From a virus: a stretch of DNA of 37,770 bases. The notes below the pieces were generated by a model. The model was not told where the DNA came from and made no database searches. It worked only from the letters and a program-made list of their open reading frames with translations. The DNA lies in UHGV virus genome UHGV-1359486; one strand, written 5' to 3'. Numbering within the stretch: the first letter of the stretch is position 1; every line of letters starts with the position of its first letter. The position numbers and the translations under genes were made by a program. Shown here in pieces: positions 1 to 37,056 of the stretch.

Positions 1-1055
1 TGCACGACAAATTAAAGGCCGAACAATGGCGAATTGAGCAGGTAGGGGACTTCCCGGACTATACCTATGAGGAAGCCTGCCTGCGGTGGCTTGAGGAAAA
101 AGCAGATAAAAAATCGATAGAGGATGATAAGAACTTTATCACTTTCTGGCTTGAGTACTTCGAGGGTGTCCGGCTGAAGGATATAACCGAGAATGCCATT
201 TACAAGATCATCAGTAAGATGACAAACAAGCATGCTGAAAACTGCTGGAGAAGGAAAGCTGACACAGCAAAAAGGAAGGGAAAGGAGGTGCCGCTGTTTA
301 CATCGAAGCCTGTCACTACGGCTACAAAGGCGCGATACCTTTCTTTCATTAAGGCGCTACTCAGAGCGGCAGAAAGAGAATGGAAGTGGATAGAAAAGTC
401 ACCTGTGATAAAAATCCCATCTATTCGTGATCGGAGAGTCCGGTGGCTTGAGCCTGTCGAGGCGAAAAGACTGATTGATGAATGTCCTGAGCCATTAAAG
501 TCAGTCGTCAGGTTCGCTCTGTCAACCGGCCTGCGTCGTTCGAACATACTTAACCTTGAGTGGCAGCAGATAGACATGCAGCGGAAAGTGGCATGGATTT
601 ACCCTGAAGACAGTAAATCAGGTAAAGCGATCGGTGTAGCCCTGAACGATACCGCATGCAGGGTTTTGCGCAGCCAGATTGGTCGCCATCACAAATGGGT
701 ATTTGTCCACACTGATCCGTCATACAGGAATGACGGAACACCGGTTGCGGCAGTAAGAAAGATGAGGCCGGATTCTAATACAGCATGGAGAGCAGCATTA
801 AAAAGAGCCGGTATCGATGATTTCCGTTTCCATGACCTGAGACACACCTGGGCAAGCTGGCTGATCCAGTCTGGCGTTCCGCTTTCAGTGTTACAGGAAA
901 TGGGCGGGTGGGAGTCGATAGAAATGGTGCGCAGATATGCCCATCTGGCACCAAATCATCTTACCGAACATGCGAAGCAAATAGATGCCATTTTTGACAG
1001 TTACGTCCCAAATACGTCCCAAGGTGAAAAACTGGCATCGGGAGATAATCACTAA
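1..1055 (+). CDS. int: Tyrosine integrase, 3' part (continues from 37662..37770)
   Basis: Open from position 3 without start; C-terminal catalytic motifs HDLRHTWAS and MVRRYAHL (R...HxxR...Y); close to P22 Int as recalled. Confidence 0.9.
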
Positions 1056-1070
1056 GTCTTTGATAAGTAA

Positions 1071-1120
1071 TGGTGCCGGATACCGGATTCGAACTGGTGA
1101 CCTTTTCATTACGAAACCGA
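1071..1120 (-). other. attP core: 3' portion of a tRNA gene (anticodon-loop-like TTCGTAA, T-arm GGTTCGAATCC, acceptor 3' strand, CCA); no D-arm/5' half present
   Basis: Reverse complement reads ...TTCGTAATGAAAAGGTCACCAGTTCGAATCCGGTATCCGGCACCA, 16 nt after int stop; loop suggests anticodon CGU (tRNA-Thr), the site used by P22-family integrases. Confidence 0.6.
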
Positions 1121-1292
1121 AGATTTATTAAAATACAACACGTTACACCGCATCTTTTCTCGCTCTCACGTACCAAGATGCATAAAGTTACCCGCTGATA
1201 CGCAAGCATGCAAAATGTTCCGCGTCCCAAACTCGTCCCAATACCCCTTCTCCTGCTATACTCCCATCATCACCCACCACTCCGAATCTAAC

Positions 1293-1517
1293 ATGCACAA
1301 TATAGCCAACCTCCCACAAGACGAAAAAGACAAAATTAATGCCGATTTAGCCGCATCCGGTATCGCGTACAAAGAAAGACTCGGACTGCCGTATGATCTG
1401 TACGAAACAGAAAACCAGCAGCCCGAGCATTTACGCCCGTACTTCAGAGAGAGGCTGGAGCACTACAGGGAGATCGGGAAAAGGCTTCCGCGTGGGTTCG
1501 AGTATGAGAAGGAGTGA
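1293..1517 (+). CDS. Hypothetical small protein (74 aa) next to attP; start uncertain (track ORF 1215..1517)
   Basis: ORF only; no convincing Shine-Dalgarno. Confidence 0.3.
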   Translation: MHNIANLPQDEKDKINADLAASGIAYKERLGLPYDLYETENQQPEHLRPYFRERLEHYREIGKRLPRGFEYEKE

Positions 1518-1598
1518 TCATGTCACGTTCATGCTGACCTATCTTTACAGGAATGGTAACATGGTGTCATATATCTTGGTTTTTTTTGGACTATTTTA

Positions 1599-2663
1599 AT
1601 GATAACAAAAGAACAGAAAATTGACTGCATAAATTATGCAAAAGCAATAGGAATAATTGCGGTTGTTATTGGTCATTATAAAAATGACATGTTCGATGTA
1701 TTCAAACCTTATATGTATCATATGCCTTTATTTTTCTTTATTGGTGGCATTTTACATAACGATAAAAGAAGCATTACAAATAGCATTCTAACCACCATAA
1801 AAAAACATCATTTTTATATAGTGGTTAATTATATACTAATTGGGATATTTATAATTGCAGTAAATAACTCATTTGGAACGTCATTGAGAAACCCATTTGA
1901 TGAATCAATCATTGGAACGATAAAGTATGCGGTGACATGGAATTTCCATTCCAATACGCTGTTTTTGGTTGCATGGTTTTTGTTTGCATACTCTTTAATA
2001 TTTGTTTTATTTTCAGTGATGATTAACAAAATAACAAAAGGTAAATTACCTATATTTCTAATTTCAATTTTTCTTGGTGTTATTGGTTACTACGTGGCGG
2101 TTGAGATGTATGCTAAAAGTGAATTGTTTTATCTTAACTTATTAAGTCAGGTTTTGGTTGGGTCAATGTTTTATGGCATAGGAGTATCAATAAAGGATAG
2201 GTTTTTTTCATTGCTCAACCCATTCGCCTTTGTTGTTATATTAATGGCAATACTGACATTGGTTAAACTTGATTATATAGGAACGATAGGAATGTCGTGG
2301 AGTAATTACAATAAAGGGTTGTTTAACCTATTGTTTACACCAGTGGCATGTATTTATTGTGTATTTTTTGTTTCTTACTCATTATCAAAATCAATCGAAT
2401 TCAAGACACTATTGCTCATCGGAATGAATACAAAATCAATAATGTCATATCACTTAGCGGCATTTGTTATATTAGATATATTTTTCAGTTACATTGGGAA
2501 GTATGAAATATCTAACATAAGCGCATTGAATCATTTCAATACATACAAGGTATGGGTTATTTACGTTTTATTTTCAATATTCGCCTCAATCTATTGCGAG
2601 AAGATATTTATACATCTGAAAGATAAGTCGCTGCTAATCGCAAAAAGAAAACTATTGGATTAA
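1599..2663 (+). CDS. Acyltransferase family 3 integral membrane protein (O-antigen acetyltransferase-like; probable lysogenic conversion gene)
   Basis: 354 aa, about 10 predicted TM helices, N-terminal motif INYAKAIGIIAVVIGHY typical of acyltransferase_3; very AT-rich; same position as oac in Sf6-type phages. Confidence 0.6.
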   Translation: MITKEQKIDCINYAKAIGIIAVVIGHYKNDMFDVFKPYMYHMPLFFFIGGILHNDKRSITNSILTTIKKHHFYIVVNYILIGIFIIAVNNSFGTSLRNPFDESIIGTIKYAVTWNFHSNTLFLVAWFLFAYSLIFVLFSVMINKITKGKLPIFLISIFLGVIGYYVAVEMYAKSELFYLNLLSQVLVGSMFYGIGVSIKDRFFSLLNPFAFVVILMAILTLVKLDYIGTIGMSWSNYNKGLFNLLFTPVACIYCVFFVSYSLSKSIEFKTLLLIGMNTKSIMSYHLAAFVILDIFFSYIGKYEISNISALNHFNTYKVWVIYVLFSIFASIYCEKIFIHLKDKSLLIAKRKLLD

Positions 2664-2684
2664 GGGGCTGACGCCCCTTTTTCT
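2663..2684 (+). terminator. Rho-independent terminator between convergent acyltransferase and tailspike genes
   Basis: GGGGC-TGAC-GCCCC hairpin followed by TTTTT. Confidence 0.5.
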
Positions 2685-2689
2685 TTAAA

Positions 2690-4621
2690 TTAGATGCATA
2701 TAATTTCAATAAAAAACATCATTCCTGATGTTAATTCATTTGGTTTTACTTTATTACCACTTGTATCAATTAAGTTAAAGTAAACCTCTCCTGACCCAGC
2801 TGATGAGTTGTTGTAAAATGGAGCCAGTGAAATTCCGTTTGCGTTGTTGCAACTGGTACACATCACATATGGGCGTTGATACTTAGTGTATCCAGGCATA
2901 AATTTGACCTTAAAGGCGTATGGATCGCCAGGAACGCTTTCTGCAGAATAAACTCCTGACGCAATATAGAATGAATTATCTACAACGATACCTGACCCGC
3001 CCTGACTAACAAGGCACCCAATTCTCCTGTTTAGTGAGGCGACACTTCCCTCTGACTTGCGCCACTGGTATGAGTTATTTCTTGAAATGACTGGTGTCGC
3101 CATATTTACATATTTAAGTGGTATGTTTCCGCTAATATCATTATCGCCAGCATCAACCCCTTTTATTGTTATTATATTATCTTGCTTCTCAGGATATCCG
3201 GCATAGTCCCAACAGAAAAAATCAATTCTATTTTGCCCTGCACCATCAATAAATAGAGAGCTAACGGCATCACCTCCCCACTGCTGTACATAGTCACATT
3301 GAATTTCAGCTATTTGTGTGTTGTATGGATATGCATCCGTAGTTATAGGGACGCACTTGATGGTTATGCCATGCAAAGCCCCCTCAACCCTTATGTTTCT
3401 AAAAATACATGACGTTATCCATGATCCACCATCTGAACCCGCTGTGCCTTCCGCTGCAACATCCTCCTTTTTAGGCTGCACGGCGAGTACCTGTAATGCA
3501 TACTCACCAAACCCTAAAGTCAGGTCAGTGAACTTCCCCCAACAAATGCTATTCCATCTGCGGCGGTCGTCAACATACTGGCCTCCGTCCTTGCTTAAAT
3601 CAGCACGAAGCATGAGTGAAGTACCGGTCTTGTCTTTCGAGCAACCAACCAGGTTAAGGTTACTGATCGTTATGTTGCGGAGGTTATTTTTACCGATAAC
3701 CAATGCAACAGAATGATTCCATTCTGTTAGGTCACTATCGACGGCTATTCTCGCCTTATTACCATGCCCTTCTGTGCTGAATTCAATATTGTCATTTTCA
3801 AACACAAACCAATCGTTACGTAGTGAGCGGTTAATTAACTGAGCTCCGCCAGAAAAACGGAAGTTTTTCTTAACCTTGACCTGGCTGTTGCAATCAAATG
3901 ACATTTTAGGGATCAGGATGGTGTTTACTGCTGCAATTTCCTGAAGGCCACCCAGAATACTTCCGATATCAGTATTCTCCTGAGCGCCAACAGAAAGGAT
4001 ATCAGCGCCGTTTGTAACATCCAATGTTGCAGTCAGTCCGTTATCCAGGATGACGTTTACCAGCGTGTCTGGCTGATTATTTGTGATTGCATAAATGCCC
4101 TCACCACCATCACCAGGAGAGTAATATCCGCGAGTTTTGACCGTAGCCCCAAGTGGAAGTGATGTATCCGCTACCATTGCAGCGACATTATCGAAGACGC
4201 GGAGATAGTTTTCAGTCAGGCCACCTATCATTTTATATCCATCGTCCCCGCCTAACTCCCCCCTTATCCTTACATCAAATTGATCAGGGTCATACTTCAA
4301 AACATTAGGATAATAGAACTGCTGAGCTCCGTATGAATCATACACCGCCATAGAATGGCCTTGTATGGTAACGAACTTCGCAATCTGCCCGTTATATACC
4401 GGATAGCCAGCTTGGTTAATAATCAGAGGCTGAGTTGCGGGAATGTGCGTTCCATCTTCGTTTTCAAGATACACCTGAATTTGGTTTTCCGGTATGGTGG
4501 GATCGGTGTCAATTTTCCCGATGAAGATTTTCCCGTTACTCGCCGCCTGGAATTTGCGTGCAAGCGTGAACAACTGCGAAGGCATGCTCACTACAACATT
4601 AGGAATAATTTGTTCTGACAT
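2690..4621 (-). CDS. Tailspike protein (P22 gp9-type N-terminal head-binding domain + divergent beta-helix receptor-binding domain)
   Basis: N-terminus [13 protein letters not shown]...[12 protein letters not shown]...[10 protein letters not shown] matches P22-family tailspike head-binding domain; ATG at 4619-4621 with GGAG 6 nt upstream (track ORF starts at TTG 4633). Confidence 0.85.
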
Positions 4622-4689
4622 TGCTTTCTCCAAGCGTGAGTAGTCGCATCAGACTATGATGTGATTTTTTAATTTAATAGGAGTGTGAT

Positions 4690-20687: not shown

Positions 20688-20873
20688 ACCGCCCCCTTCC
20701 GGAGGATTTAGTTAATAGGGTGCCGCGCACAGTATCTCTGCGCTGATTACGTTTGTTTGTTCAGGATTCTGTGGCGGCGTGTTTGTTTATTAGTTGGATT
20801 GGATGCTGCATCGATGAATGAGTTATATTCAGCAATGCCGATTAATATCACCACCCACATAAAGCAGGTAAAA

Positions 20874-21332
20874 ATGACTGAAAATAAAGAAAGAGCGACT
20901 AAATATTATATCGAGATAGTTAAGCCAACTATCGATGAGTTTATGAATGACAAATGCAGTATTAGAAAAGGAATGCTGGCATCAATCACCATGAATCACA
21001 TAATTGATTACCTATATGACGACAGTTCAAAAAGCGATGGTTTCAGATTTTCGTCCTCTGAATGCGACGCTCTGAACACCATTAAAGATGTCTGCAATGC
21101 ATCTAAACACTGTGAGTTAACAAGAGGAAACCCATCAATAAAATCATCAGACCAAATAACACAAGATGATGTTCCAGGATTATTTTCCGCTCCGTTTGGA
21201 ACTGGTGGATTTCTTGAAGCAAGTTATGTTTTCGTTAAACTTAACGATGAAATTAATGGCGATAAATTCAAATGCTTGCCGAATATAATAAAAGAGGCCG
21301 AAGATTACTGGGATAAACGACTTCCGTCATAA
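20874..21332 (+). CDS. Moron: unknown protein antisense to the late operon (152 aa from ATG 20874; alternatives ATG 20814, TTG 20757)
   Basis: Uninterrupted ORF, AGGT 5 nt upstream of ATG, markedly AT-rich relative to flanks; no recognisable motif. Confidence 0.55.
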   Translation: MTENKERATKYYIEIVKPTIDEFMNDKCSIRKGMLASITMNHIIDYLYDDSSKSDGFRFSSSECDALNTIKDVCNASKHCELTRGNPSIKSSDQITQDDVPGLFSAPFGTGGFLEASYVFVKLNDEINGDKFKCLPNIIKEAEDYWDKRLPS

Positions 21333-21340
21333 AATCACAA

Positions 21341-21364
21341 AATAAAAAGCCCTCCGAAGAGGGC
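21341..21364 (-). terminator. tR'-like strong rho-independent terminator (hairpin shared with the end of the plus-strand moron)
   Basis: GCCCTC-CGAA-GAGGGC hairpin; minus strand followed by UUUUUAUUUU; about 165 nt downstream of PR'. Confidence 0.6.
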
Positions 21365-31991: not shown

Positions 31992-32787
31992 CATCAGCAA
32001 TGATGACTATCACAACGGCCCCGGGATAAGTAAATCGCAGCTGGACCTTATCGAACAATCACCGGCTGACTTTATCTGGCAACGGAATGCCCCGGTGGAT
32101 GAGGAAAAAATAAAGGCTCTGGATTTCGGGACCGCTGTTCACTGCCTTTTGCTTGAGCCTGATGAGTTCAATAACCGGTACAGGATAGGGCCGGAAGTAA
32201 ACAGACGCACATCCGCAGGGAAGCAGGAAGAAAAGGAATTCTTCGAAATGTGCGAAAAAGAAGGAATCACGCCAATCACCCATGACGACAACAGGAAGTT
32301 GATGATCATGCGGGATAGTGCCATGGCCCACCCTATCGCCAAATGGTGCCTTGAAGCTGAAGGAAAAGCCGAGAGCAGCATTTACTGGAATGACAAGGAA
32401 ACGGACATTCTTTGCCGGTGCAGGCCGGACAAACTGATAGGACAACACGGATGGATTGTCGATGTGAAAAGCACCGCGGACATGTCCCGCTTCGAACGCG
32501 CTTTTTACGATATGCGCTATCACGTTCAGGACGCGTTTTACTCAGACGGATATAAGGACCTGTCCGGAGAGTTACCGGTGTTCGTATTTCTCGCGGTCAG
32601 CACAACAATCGACTGCGGAAGATATCCGGTCCGTGTATTCATTATGGATGATGTGGCAAAGGATGCCGGACGGTCCGCATACAAACAAAATCTCAGAACA
32701 TACACCGAGTGCATTAAAACGGATGAATGGCCCGGTCTGAGAACACTATCACTGCCACGCTACGCAAAGGAACTGAGAAATGAGTAA
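31969..32787 (+). CDS. RecE-type exonuclease (nuclease domain only; PD-(D/E)XK)
   Basis: GIYDDISNDDYHNGPGISKSQL, SSIYWND, CRCRPDKL, GWIVDVKSTAD, YHVQDAFYSDGY match the C-terminal nuclease domain of E. coli RecE as recalled. Confidence 0.8.
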   Translation: MQPGIYDDISNDDYHNGPGISKSQLDLIEQSPADFIWQRNAPVDEEKIKALDFGTAVHCLLLEPDEFNNRYRIGPEVNRRTSAGKQEEKEFFEMCEKEGITPITHDDNRKLMIMRDSAMAHPIAKWCLEAEGKAESSIYWNDKETDILCRCRPDKLIGQHGWIVDVKSTADMSRFERAFYDMRYHVQDAFYSDGYKDLSGELPVFVFLAVSTTIDCGRYPVRVFIMDDVAKDAGRSAYKQNLRTYTECIKTDEWPGLRTLSLPRYAKELRNE

Positions 32788-33589
32788 CCCACCAATCGCA
32801 CAGGCGGACCTGCAAAAAGCACAAGGGACCGCGGTTAAAGAAAAAACAAAAGACCAGCAGCTAATCCAGTTCATAAACCAGCCAGGCATGAAAGCTCAAC
32901 TAGCAGCCGCCCTGCCGAGGCATATAACACCGGACCGCATGATCAGGATTGTCACCACCGAGATACGGAAAACTCCATCACTGGCAACCTGTGACATGCA
33001 AAGCTTTATCGGCGCTGTTGTTCAGTGCTCGCAACTTGGCCTTGAGCCAGGTAACGCATTGGGCCACGCCTACCTCCTTCCGTTCGGCAATGGTAAAGCG
33101 GCATCAGGGCAATCAAATATTCAGTTAATTATCGGATATCGCGGCATGATCGACCTCGCCCGCCGATCCGGTCAAATTATCAGTATATCGGCCCGCACTG
33201 TGCGCGAAGGTGACAGTTTTCATTTTGAATATGGCTTAAACGAGGACCTTACACACGTACCCGGCGAAAATGACTCGGGCCCAATCACCCACGTTTATGC
33301 AGTGGCCCGCCTGAAAGAAGGTGGTGTTCAGTTTGAGGTTATGTCTTTCTCTCAGATTGAGAAGGTCCGCGATTCAAGCAAGGCCGGTAAAAATGGTCCA
33401 TGGGTATCTCACTGGGAAGAAATGGCGAAAAAGACCGTCATCCGCCGCCTGTTCAAATATCTGCCGGTATCTATCGAGATGCAGAGGGCCGTCATTCTGG
33501 ATGAAAAAGCAGAGGCCAACGTGGACCAGGAGCATGCATCTATTTTTGAAGGTGAGTACGAAACTGTATCGCCGGAATCCGCGGGGTAA
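32780..33589 (+). CDS. recT: RecT-family single-strand annealing protein
   Basis: 269 aa; LLPFG, IGYRGMIDLARRSG motifs; coupled downstream of the nuclease. Confidence 0.85.
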   Translation: MSNPPIAQADLQKAQGTAVKEKTKDQQLIQFINQPGMKAQLAAALPRHITPDRMIRIVTTEIRKTPSLATCDMQSFIGAVVQCSQLGLEPGNALGHAYLLPFGNGKAASGQSNIQLIIGYRGMIDLARRSGQIISISARTVREGDSFHFEYGLNEDLTHVPGENDSGPITHVYAVARLKEGGVQFEVMSFSQIEKVRDSSKAGKNGPWVSHWEEMAKKTVIRRLFKYLPVSIEMQRAVILDEKAEANVDQEHASIFEGEYETVSPESAG

Positions 33590-35255: not shown

Positions 35256-35537
35256 GCAATAGTTCAGTATTACGTTGCGTGTAAAAAAGATGAAGACCCG
35301 GCATCCGTCACTGAGATTTTTCGCTGTGAATTATCAGACGACCATAATTTCAGTGCTGATGATGACGACTTCGAATTTTGTATAGAAACATGCGCAGAAG
35401 ATTTTCACGACAGATGCGACGGGTGGGAGCGTCATTGGCCTTTATTATTCATGCTGTGGATTGATGGGAAATATATCGGCATGTTTGAAGTTGAACGCGA
35501 ATATGAGCCAACATTTTCAGCCAACAAAGTTAATTAA
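35247..35537 (+). CDS. Acidic hypothetical protein (96 aa)
   Basis: D/E-rich (SDDHNFSADDDDFEF). Confidence 0.5.
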   Translation: MNMAIVQYYVACKKDEDPASVTEIFRCELSDDHNFSADDDDFEFCIETCAEDFHDRCDGWERHWPLLFMLWIDGKYIGMFEVEREYEPTFSANKVN

Positions 35538-35555
35538 GCAGATTCAGGAGGGGTG

Positions 35556-35849
35556 ATGGATAGTAATAATATAGAATTTTTACAGCCAGATGATTTAAAT
35601 AATCTGAAACGGTTCAATGAAAATTGCGAAGATAGTCAAGATTACGACGTACCAAAAGAAAAAATGCACCGCATGGCTAAATTGGGAGTTGTGCGTCGTC
35701 ACAGTAGAAACTATTACAGCATAACATCATTCGGAATGTATTTACTTAATCAAGGTGACGAACTATATAAATTGCCACTTAAAACGCAGTCTGATTACGA
35801 TGCAGAATTCCGATTTAATTTAGCCAATAAAATTCGAGGCTCATCATGA
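35556..35849 (+). CDS. Hypothetical protein (97 aa from ATG; track starts at GTG 35553)
   Basis: AGGAGG RBS; AT-rich. Confidence 0.5.
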   Translation: MDSNNIEFLQPDDLNNLKRFNENCEDSQDYDVPKEKMHRMAKLGVVRRHSRNYYSITSFGMYLLNQGDELYKLPLKTQSDYDAEFRFNLANKIRGSS

Positions 35850-36139
35850 TGGGTATATCACGACAGCAGTTTGAGGAATACATTAAATTGCATACCGACT
35901 CAGCAGGGCTGGAGCTGAAATTAAAAAAAGCAAATAACGGATTAAATTACGCTAACCGGGATGTCGATTTAATGTGGATTGGCTGGCAGGCATCGCGTGA
36001 AATCTTAACTGTTGAATTGCCTTTATCTCTTCACGTAAGAGCCTATGACTATTACACGGACGGCTATAACAGTGGCGTGGATTACTGTGAAGTTATATTG
36101 GAATCTGCGGGAATAAAAGTAATAAGAACCGACCAATAA
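35846..36139 (+). CDS. Hypothetical protein (97 aa)
   Basis: ATGA coupling. Confidence 0.5.
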   Translation: MMGISRQQFEEYIKLHTDSAGLELKLKKANNGLNYANRDVDLMWIGWQASREILTVELPLSLHVRAYDYYTDGYNSGVDYCEVILESAGIKVIRTDQ

Positions 36140-36306
36140 AATCATCGGGGAATAACAATGACAATCGGATTTGTATTACTACTGGTAATGCACGGTGCTG
36201 CTGTGCCTGTTACCGATGATATTTATACGCTCGAGGAATGTGAGAGCCGCGCAGTGCAGGTAATGGCTGTGCGGAATGTTGAATTAGTGTGTGCGGAGGT
36301 TTTCAG

Positions 36307-36675
36307 ATGAGACAAATTAAAATAAGCTCTGGCGCGTGGCAAAAAGATTTAGAAATGGTTGTCACTGTTATCGATGAAGATAAATTTAAAACTCAGTGTG
36401 AGCAAGTTAATAAATTTTATTGTGACGCAGAGTATAGAGCTAAGAAACACGGAAGCCATGAAAAAGCGGGGTTCGCCATGTTCTGCGCTGAGTGTTTTCA
36501 ACAAATGGCATTCAATAACTTTAAAGACGAAGAATGGCTGACTGAGCAATTCGACTGGTCTAAAGATAAAGGAATTGAAGGGTATCCTTCGTTAGATGAT
36601 ATGGGCATTCGAATCGATGAAATTGAGCCATGGTTTATTGATTACGACGAAATGGAAATTACAGGATGGTGTTAA
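36307..36675 (+). CDS. Hypothetical protein (122 aa from ATG; track 36289)
   Basis: GGAGG RBS 8 nt upstream. Confidence 0.5.
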   Translation: MRQIKISSGAWQKDLEMVVTVIDEDKFKTQCEQVNKFYCDAEYRAKKHGSHEKAGFAMFCAECFQQMAFNNFKDEEWLTEQFDWSKDKGIEGYPSLDDMGIRIDEIEPWFIDYDEMEITGWC

Positions 36676-37056
36676 ATGAACAAATATAGTGACAAATCAG
36701 ACTTTGAGATTAATAAGGCTGTGGCTGTTAATATTAATGGCACTGACTCTGTTTTAGAAAAGTTCGGTAGAATATATATCAGTGATGGCGATAGAGGTGC
36801 GATGGTGAGCTTCTCCCCATGCAACAACCCAGCGGACGCATGGCCTATTATTTTAAAAAACAGAATCAGCATTATCATTCCAGGGAATGAATATAGTGAT
36901 GGTTACAGCACTCCATTTGCTGCAAGTGGATTTGATGATGTTTCTCATATAACCAGAAATACATATTATACAGATGAGGAATCATTCAATCAAAACCCAC
37001 TACGCGCAGCAATGGAAGTATTCCTGATGATGAAAGAGGCGGAGAATGGTAAATAG
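36676..37056 (+). CDS. Hypothetical protein (126 aa)
   Basis: ORF with ATG. Confidence 0.5.
   Translation: MNKYSDKSDFEINKAVAVNINGTDSVLEKFGRIYISDGDRGAMVSFSPCNNPADAWPIILKNRISIIIPGNEYSDGYSTPFAASGFDDVSHITRNTYYTDEESFNQNPLRAAMEVFLMMKEAENGK

Follow-up and report, generated by a model that had tools for sequence, protein, structure and literature searches.

Temperate phages such as Sf6, P22, epsilon15, D3 and BTP1 alter the O-antigen of their hosts by acetylation or glucosylation, with a change of serotype and self-exclusion as the outcome. Here we describe a gene that, on balance, we consider likely to act in the same manner: the open reading frame (ORF) at positions 1599-2663 (+ strand) of the viral genome UHGV-1359486, whose full 37,770 nucleotides are referred to below as the window and supply all coordinates. 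It encodes a membrane protein of 354 residues that comprises an acyltransferase-3 (AT3) domain only and that would be a stand-alone, acetyl-CoA-dependent, WbaK-like O-antigen O-acetyltransferase, carried as lysogenic-conversion cargo masking the phage's own receptor.

The Oac protein of Sf6 (OacA, to which OacB, OacC and OacD are related) is, like the window protein, AT3-only, and its gene also lies in a P22-like phage next to int, convergent with the tailspike gene and sharing a terminator with it; the role we predict, serotype conversion together with exclusion of the phage's own endoglycosidase tailspike, is likewise that of Oac. In P22 and phage L the same slot (int, attP with a tRNA-Thr fragment, conversion module, tailspike) is occupied by gtrABC, a module of the same functional class, with which a temperate phage decorates the O-antigen; it differs in that it consists of three genes, employs bactoprenol-linked glucose and encodes proteins unrelated to the single acyl-CoA-dependent enzyme of the window. 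A first-pass annotation of the window, made from the sequence alone, had assigned the gene to this conversion slot of P22-like phages, and it does lie there, between attP and the tailspike gene, as gtrABC does in phage L and P22 and oac in Sf6.

OafA and the prophage-borne OafB (family II GtrC) of Salmonella prophage BTP1 share with the window protein the AT3 domain, the catalytic His of transmembrane helix 1 (TMH1) and the acetyl-CoA pore, and the acetylation of rhamnose by OafB guards against the BTP1 tailspike; both differ in having a fused periplasmic SGNH domain and Arg-based motifs, whereas the window protein is AT3-only and Lys-based. For Sf6 Oac as for BTP1 OafB, experiments showed that the cognate tailspike is blocked by O-acetylation (PMC9558356). 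WbaK (orf17.4), the galactose 6-O-acetyltransferase of the Salmonella enterica group E1 O-antigen, resembles the window protein in being AT3-only, about 350 residues long and encoded by a gene of very low GC content. It differs in that its gene is part of the chromosome, where it closes the O-antigen cluster and is read in the same direction, whereas the window gene is phage-borne and tail-to-tail with the tailspike gene. In proteins of the AT3/transmembrane acyltransferase (TmAT) type, acyl-CoA enters a pore from the cytoplasm and the acyl group is offered to the TMH1 histidine at the outer face (PMC9833829, PMC12423673).

Family, fold and conserved residues of the acyltransferase

The first-pass annotation had read the ORF as a multi-pass membrane protein with an AT3 signature at its N-terminus, and both statements held. 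The signature, whose absence from a PF01757 search that annotation had named as a refutation, proved to be a full-length match to PF01757 (Acyl_transf_3) above threshold (E 5.5e-14 and 52.4 bits, the cut-off being 31), in which residues 9-332 align with positions 2-323 of the 326-position profile, and the same domain is present in all 118 of the listed homologs with a precomputed Pfam domain. The AlphaFold2 (AF2) model (pLDDT 92.5) has ten transmembrane helices, concordant with the hydropathy peaks, at residues 4-25, 41-51, 59-92, 124-144, 150-174, 177-198, 208-223, 240-265, 269-298 (this ninth helix is broken) and 319-353, with an additional loop helix at 104-113. It matches solved TmAT structures well above other membrane folds. 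Among these, human HGSNAT and fungal GWT1 are only 11-12% identical in sequence to the window protein and differ in being eukaryotic, in having extra domains and in acting on other acceptors (heparan sulfate and GPI inositol, respectively). Other searches with the acyltransferase returned little: there was no match in NCBIfam, no PHROGs family and no PADLOC defence family at E 0.01 or better (the latter also for the neighbouring theta-subunit gene discussed below), nothing in a PDB sequence search even at E 10, and noise only when the model was compared by Foldseek with the BFVD viral models.

Residues invariant in the family alignment are H26, H41, M42, F45, F46, G50, Y73, F122, W126, F127, Y131, G195, Y237, M282 and H285. 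Of these, H26 closes the first helix at its periplasmic end, is invariant in 39 homologs and is the counterpart of the essential His25 of OafB, which belongs to an R-X10-H motif whose Arg has been described as absolutely conserved (PMC9833829). The window protein retains the exact spacing of this motif with Lys instead of Arg (K15-X10-H26), and within its subfamily the column holds K, Q, R or S. The homolog from a Salmonella O-antigen cluster also has Lys, in 'MDYVKAFGMIFVLVGH', as well as 'IKKQ'. Alternation of Arg and Lys at this TMH1 position has been recorded, and Lys is regarded as an accepted alternative (PMC12423673). Instead of a second motif of the family, RXXR, we found K68-K69-H70-H71, which lies at the cytoplasmic start of TMH3 (helix 59-92) in the model and which hhalign, in a weak match to Sf6 Oac that is confined to the N-terminal part and has a low probability of 6.8%, aligns with R73/R75/R76 of that protein; the subfamily consensus at this point is K-K-H/Q, with no Arg pair. 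Since both Lys-for-Arg deviations are common to the whole subfamily, including its chromosomal members in O-antigen clusters, they point to a distinct branch rather than to decay, and since assignment to AT3 rests on the profile match and the fold, it is retained despite the deviation from RXXR.

The gene is also under purifying selection. Relative to its two closest relatives in other phage backbones (96-97% identical; see below) its dN/dS is about 0.25, the differences being gathered in the cytoplasmic C-terminal tail, and in all three backbones the ORF is intact with no invariant residue changed.

Relationship to genes of O-antigen clusters

The closest protein, 97% identical, is from Morganella morganii, and the next relatives are at most 53% identical. 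At 90% identity the acyltransferase belongs to a cluster of 26 members, all named ones of which are from M. morganii, across many assemblies, indicating that the host of the phage is Morganella. Searches of deposited phage genomes gave no relatives: 50,697 phage records, Sf6 included, contained no tblastn match to the acyltransferase or to its E. coli homolog (P0027), and megablast with positions 1000-2800 as the query found nothing in phages or in 5,426 E. coli genomes. Because it was found neither in those 50,697 genomes nor in PHROGs, this branch of acyltransferases appears to occur only in prophages and in O-antigen clusters.

The chromosomal homologs form two large clusters that are 35-37% identical to the window protein (E 1e-42 to 1e-61) and whose genes are placed between wbaP and gnd in O-antigen clusters. 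In a Salmonella locus (L081) the order is AT3-gnd-ugd-wzz-his, with the AT3 gene immediately upstream of gnd, and in a Citrobacter locus (L084) it is wzy-GT-GT-manC-manB-wbaP-AT3-gnd-ugd-wzz. The Salmonella members are found in serovars Anatum, Muenster, Give, Uganda and Amsterdam, all of which are O:3,10, as well as in Weltevreden and Eko; the window protein is 37% identical to a full-length member (P0130) over 315 residues (E 3e-61). WbaK is the O-acetyltransferase of O:3,10 strains, its gene has been located 'after wbaP' in the group E1 cluster, and Eko carries wbaK downstream of wbaP (PMC3715488, PMC6712391, PMC9558356). As both location and serovar range match those described for WbaK, we infer that the Salmonella homologs are WbaK. 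The motifs that the window protein shares with this presumed WbaK are K-X10-H, HMPLFFFIGG, WF and MSYH.

No such relationship was found with Sf6 Oac. BLASTP gave E 0.12 and the match was not colinear, on which ground we rejected the possibility that the window gene is an oac ortholog. The two proteins, with KKHH in one and R73/R75/R76 in the other, fall on separate branches of PF01757, and the window gene would thus appear to share the position of oac, yet not its branch of the gene family.

Association with the receptor-binding domain of the tailspike

Immediately beyond the acyltransferase gene, and convergent with it across a gap of 26 nt, is the tailspike gene (2690-4633, - strand). Its product has a P22-type head-binding, particle-attachment domain at the N-terminus (4226-4633; PF09008, E 3.4e-65, residues 8-118), for which the PDB matches are the N-domains of the Sf6 and P22 tailspikes, and a C-terminal receptor-binding part of about 525 residues (2690-4225). 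The ORF as called mechanically starts at TTG 4633 (MEKAMSEQ...). Comparison with P22-type tailspikes suggests that the true start is likely ATG 4621 (MSEQII...).

The head-binding domain belongs to the phage backbone; the receptor-binding part and the acyltransferase gene do not keep to it. A second backbone was found on an M. morganii chromosome (L001), in which a theta-subunit gene, the acyltransferase gene and a convergent tailspike gene stand at the end of a prophage, with host-looking genes on the other side. The tail genes of this prophage are of the siphovirus type (tape measure, DUF1833, NlpC/P60 and a Tail_spike_N adaptor), and positions 1034-4225 of the window are 96.9% identical to it, from the att core on the left to a point inside the tailspike gene on the right. 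A third backbone, a 40.7-kb IMG/VR contig (L010), shares only positions 1501-4243, at 96.1%: that is, about 100 nt of upstream DNA, the acyltransferase gene, the terminator and the receptor-binding domain, without theta and without att. Here the receptor-binding domain is fused to a phrog_1640-type adaptor with a weak match to the T7 tail-fibre N-domain. In both cases identity ends at the junction of adaptor and receptor-binding domain (about 4225-4243); the receptor-binding part (525 aa) is 96% identical in amino acids to that of L001 and 95% to that of L010, whereas the N-termini are unrelated. Thus about 2.7 kb comprising the acyltransferase gene and the receptor-binding domain are 96-97% identical in Morganella prophages with two other types of adaptor.

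The association is not limited to Morganella. In 23 of the 24 IMG/VR viral loci with a full-length member of the subfamily, several of which are near-duplicate contigs and for three of which the classification is weaker (L026, and L015 and L031 with their split genes), a gene for a receptor-binding protein is immediately downstream on the opposite strand, 3'-to-3'. The exception is L033, in which an amidase gene is downstream. The adaptors and receptor-binding proteins concerned are of several types: siphovirus Tail_spike_N, P22 head-binding, phrog_1640/beta-helix, tail-collar fibre, and P2-like tail fibre with its assembly chaperone. The same 3'-to-3' arrangement with a tailspike or tail-fibre gene exists in four of five prophage contexts, those of Hafnia, Proteus and E. 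coli being alike and that of Providencia not. In the E. coli prophage and in L016, both with epsilon15-like layouts, the acyltransferase gene lies between the lysis genes and the tailspike gene, far from int and att, which argues that it is coupled to the receptor-binding gene and not to the att site. Among 21 loci, each of the 11 pairs whose acyltransferases are at least 60% identical has receptor-binding parts that likewise reach 60% identity or more, even where the adaptors differ, and a second lineage (L019/L020, L024 and L030) carries the acyltransferase and receptor-binding part across three adaptor types. Over all 210 pairs the divergence of the acyltransferase correlates only weakly with that of the receptor-binding part (Spearman 0.23). 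Among isolated phages, only the lytic Enterobacter phage EcP1 has a related receptor-binding domain; its tail spike is 39% identical in this region, and no acyltransferase gene adjoins it.

Receptor-binding domains are well known to be exchanged between phage genera (PMC10408124). In the literature that we looked at we found no description of the transfer of a receptor-modifying gene together with such a domain.

Some details of individual loci may be added. In Providencia alcalifaciens prophage L009 the acyltransferase gene is away from the tail genes, between that for the small terminase and a DUF551/RusA region, and near it (L009 5537-5767) is a gene with an Acb2/Tad1-hairpin, similar to anti-CBASS/Thoeris sponges. 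In L015 (4992-6047) the acyltransferase is split into ORFs of 181 and 164 residues, and in the near-identical L031 (4992-6047) it is intact at 351 residues; the split is likely a frameshift or pseudogene, or a sequencing error. The downstream tailspike of both L015 and L031 is seemingly split as well, into an adaptor protein of 394 residues and a separate protein of 428.

Proposed function and alternative explanations

Homology to WbaK, combined with the AT3/TmAT mechanism, makes acetylation of an O-antigen sugar the most likely activity, the main evidence for O-antigen as acceptor being the resemblance to WbaK-like proteins of O-antigen clusters. The first-pass annotation had proposed modification of host LPS, and this reading gains further support from the chromosomal homologs in O-antigen clusters and from the linkage to the receptor-binding domain. 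Given the conversion slot and the co-inheritance with the receptor-binding domain, masking of the phage's own receptor in lysogens is the most economical function. Acetyl-CoA would enter the central pore of the ten-helix bundle from the cytoplasm. Basic residues facing that compartment, K15 in TMH1 and K68 and K69 at the start of TMH3, would hold its phosphates, and the acetyl group would be offered to the invariant His26 where TMH1 ends on the periplasmic side. Acetylated O-antigen, exported to the surface, would be a poorer substrate or ligand for a tailspike with the co-encoded receptor-binding domain, and the lysogen would have a changed serotype and would adsorb less well both its own phage type and other phages with the same domain. 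The donor, the acceptor and the effect on tailspike and superinfection are what we infer here; the family, fold and genetic linkage on which they build are described above.

Several observations weigh against this proposal, some of them pointing to particular alternatives. Is the acceptor really O-antigen? No Pfam family matched the receptor-binding domain, its AF2 model is all-beta and of low confidence (pLDDT 54), and the best PHROG of the tailspike is phrog_8280, labelled 'colanic acid degradation'. With the domain lacking a family assignment and a good model, receptor and acceptor could be capsule or another exopolysaccharide. More broadly, the same chemistry could be directed at capsule or K-antigen, at enterobacterial common antigen (as in WecH) or at a secreted exopolysaccharide, whether this is the receptor of the tailspike or an unrelated glycan; AT3 proteins do act on many glycans (PMC9558356), and prophage acetyltransferases of Klebsiella are associated with capsule type (PMC13123978). 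We nevertheless consider this unlikely because the only relatives with an informative chromosomal context lie in O-antigen (galF-gnd) clusters, by wbaP, wzy and wzz, and none of the seven contexts sampled lies in a capsule or enterobacterial common antigen locus, and a PHROG label is an annotation rather than a test. A related idea, that the tailspike is an SGNH esterase paired against the acetylase, was not supported, since the protein has no GDS(L)-type motif and the low-confidence model of its receptor-binding domain is all-beta.

Does the linkage to the tailspike reflect selection? Adjacency could in part arise because the end of the late operon tolerates insertions. The acyltransferase might then modify O-antigen to a benefit other than self-exclusion (against other phages or immune recognition, and neutral to the tailspike), and would merely be hitch-hiking at a cargo site next to a terminator. 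Moron-type cargo commonly gathers at the ends of operons and close to att sites, the divergences correlate weakly overall, and in the Providencia prophage and L033 the neighbor of the acyltransferase gene is not a tail gene. These points are outweighed, in our opinion, by adjacency in 23 of 24 viral loci across four receptor-binding-protein architectures, by the epsilon15-like layouts with their distance from int and att, by the joint conservation in 11 of 11 closely related pairs, also where the adaptors differ, and by the experimental precedents for self-exclusion in Sf6 and BTP1. Hitch-hiking is therefore also improbable, to about the same degree as another acceptor.

A further weakness is that the identity of the Salmonella homologs as WbaK is deduced from gene position and serovar distribution, with the literature on WbaK known to us through secondary sources. 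Might the enzyme transfer something other than acetyl, such as succinyl, as in the OpgC branch, or a longer chain, as in GWT1, or require a separate periplasmic partner? Its clan does include enzymes that transfer succinyl groups or long acyl chains (PMC12423673), the structural matches include GWT1, and the basic residues of the pore are unlike the consensus of the OafA/OafB type. But the nearest characterised relative, if correctly deduced, is the O-acetyltransferase WbaK, the AT3-only enzymes Oac and WbaK work without fused SGNH domains (PMC9558356), and no partner gene is conserved beside the acyltransferase, all of which make this option very unlikely.

The remaining difficulties concern activity and expression. 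The textbook Arg residues of R-X10-H and RXXR would both be replaced in the window protein (K15; KKHH), the mapping of RXXR resting on the low-probability hhalign alignment and on model topology, and a sigma-70 scan returned no site upstream of the gene. That the protein is for this reason an inactive relic, deprived of its 'absolutely conserved' Arg and of RXXR, is the least probable explanation of all, as Lys is accepted at the TMH1 position, the same substitutions run through the subfamily up to the Salmonella O-antigen-cluster proteins, and an ORF with unaltered invariant residues and a dN/dS of about 0.25 persists in three backbones and in a 26-member cluster across many M. morganii assemblies.

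If the proposal of an O-antigen O-acetyltransferase is correct, can its linkage to the receptor-binding domain be taken a step further? Tentatively, and with rather less confidence than we attach to the enzymatic function, we suggest that the acyltransferase gene and the receptor-binding domain constitute a selected 'recognise-and-mask' cassette of about 2.7 kb (promoter region, acyltransferase, terminator, receptor-binding domain) that moves between unrelated virion architectures, with each acyltransferase matched to the glycan specificity of its partner. The architectures visited would be, equally tentatively, those of P22-type podoviruses, of siphovirus-type phages with Tail_spike_N and of phages with a phrog_1640-type adaptor, with analogous pairings formed by P2-type tail fibres. 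If this is true, a phage gaining a new host-recognition domain also gains the means to hide that receptor in the lysogen, and receptor chemistry could be predicted from acyltransferase/domain pairings.

The conversion function itself is of an ordinary kind, as prophage-encoded AT3 enzymes that modify O-antigen are already known. It would, though, be a first candidate serotype-converting gene for M. morganii, an opportunistic pathogen in which variation of the O-antigen has been poorly mapped, and it would tie a phage-borne branch of AT3 enzymes to chromosomal acetylases of the WbaK type, suggesting gene flow between prophages and O-antigen loci. The shared cassette is also concrete evidence that a receptor-modifying gene and a receptor-binding domain are exchanged jointly across phage morphotypes, which bears on predictions of the host range of phages and the phage resistance of lysogens, for instance in the choice of therapeutic phages and the engineering of tailspikes.

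Expression signals and base composition

The region upstream of the acyltransferase gene that is conserved in all three backbones (1501-1598, + strand) is presumed to hold its promoter and translation start and forms the left end of the minimal shared cassette, identity with L010 beginning at about 1501. Within it, bases ~1526-1598 (~75-90 nt 5' of the start codon) are 100% identical in the window, L001 and L010, compared with differences of 3-4% in the coding region, and this conserved stretch may be a promoter or other regulatory element. The only candidate promoter that we could discern by eye is weak: TTTACA (1544-1549)-N17-TCATAT. Transcription would probably start within these fully conserved ~90 nt and end at the hairpin and T-run at 2662-2689. 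Phase variation of the Dam/OxyR type known for gtr was considered and is not supported, there being a single GATC (1516) in the region conserved across the three backbones.

The terminator (2662-2689, + strand), identified by terminator scan and RNA folding, comprises a GC-rich hairpin at 2662-2680 with a dG of -15.8 kcal/mol on the + strand (z -3.7), followed by the T-run. On the - strand the hairpin has a dG of -13.6 and no U-run. As the T-run exists on the + strand only, the structure is a canonical intrinsic terminator for the acyltransferase gene and, for the tailspike gene, a hairpin without a U-tract. The first-pass annotation had described the two genes as convergent through a shared hairpin; they are convergent and the hairpin does occupy the 26-nt gap, but its T-run serves one strand.

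That annotation had also called the gene far more AT-rich than the phage backbone, part of an AT-rich island spanning 1141-2689. The first point is amply borne out: GC is 0.297 in the gene (0.31 at third codon positions) compared with 0.48 in the window, and among the 36,706 positions at which a 1065-nt stretch can start this is essentially the lowest (minimum 0.294 at 1557; z = -4.0). The island has to be redrawn. Its left part, 1141-1520, is not AT-rich, bases 1201-1500 having 51% GC and carrying a theta-subunit gene that had gone unnoticed. The AT-rich part begins at about 1520 and extends to about 3000, within the 3' portion of the tailspike gene. We rejected low GC as a sign of recent import into the phage, because the whole subfamily shows it: at each of the 25 loci examined, among them the chromosomal O-antigen clusters of Salmonella and Citrobacter, the GC content of the homolog is 9-23 points lower than that of its flanks.

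Integration region, theta-subunit gene and other features of the window

The gene order in the window is int, attP, theta and AT3, followed by the tailspike gene on the opposite strand. The window opens inside the tyrosine integrase gene, whose 3' part occupies 1-1055 (+ strand; longest ORF 219-1055; PF00589, E 3.5e-45) and is about 70% identical in DNA to int of P22, L and ST64T. Straight after the int stop, at about 1070, begins the attP region (1070-1112, - strand), a 3' fragment of a tRNA-Thr(CGU)-like gene. Read directly, its minus strand is ...TTCGTAATGAAAAGGTCACCAGTTCGAATCCGGTATCCGGCACCA, with the CGU (Thr) anticodon loop, and ARAGORN found no complete tRNA at the site. Alignment with the int and attP of P22-group phages extends to 1115, the annotation of phage L ('tRNA-like fragment' / 'P22 attP site') places the attP core by homology at ~1087-1109, and the stretch matches exactly the prophage/host junction of L001 in M. 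morganii.

Between attP and the cassette, at 1293-1517 (+ strand), is a gene for a 74-residue homolog of the DNA polymerase III theta subunit (HolE/HOT-like), which matches PF06440 (E 2.6e-25), NF008207 (E 3e-23) and phrog_1105 (E 1.5e-23) and is also annotated as 74 residues in L001. Its GC content is 0.498 and its dN/dS relative to L001 is 0.07, the gene being under strong purifying selection. We rejected the notion that theta and the acyltransferase form a single module: the acyltransferase gene is present without theta in L010, theta adjoins int without an acyltransferase gene in Proteus phage vB_BPM-V3, and GC and synonymous divergence (dS) are unlike. The dS relative to L001 is 0.33 for theta, compared with 0.08 for the acyltransferase gene and 0.10 for the receptor-binding domain, which suggests that the ~97% identical block shared with L001 is a mosaic of separately exchanged pieces. 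Theta is independent cargo tied to the int/attP module. Through its location in the P' arm by attP, this theta homolog, similar also to HOT of phage P1, is the outermost gene of the prophage, and it recurs beside int in Proteus phages and prophages.

The remainder of the window consists of late genes of the P22-like type, those for ejection proteins among them, and is only about 74% identical to Salmonella P22-like phages. Within it ARAGORN called a 97-nt tRNA-Gly(UCC) at 32908-33004 (- strand); there is no Rfam match at gathering threshold anywhere in the window and the call is located inside an ORF (32780-33589), so it is probably a false positive. Milder AT-rich patches at ~20750-21350, ~35420-35980 and ~36300-37000 (GC 0.35-0.37 over 400 nt) may mark further accessory (moron) genes or regulatory regions. 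Finally, GATC is about two-fold under-represented in the whole window (76 sites versus 162 +/- 12 expected from dinucleotide-preserving shuffles, with higher counts in 100 of 100 shuffles), a scarcity that may be due to avoidance of a restriction system specific for GATC or of one related to Dam.

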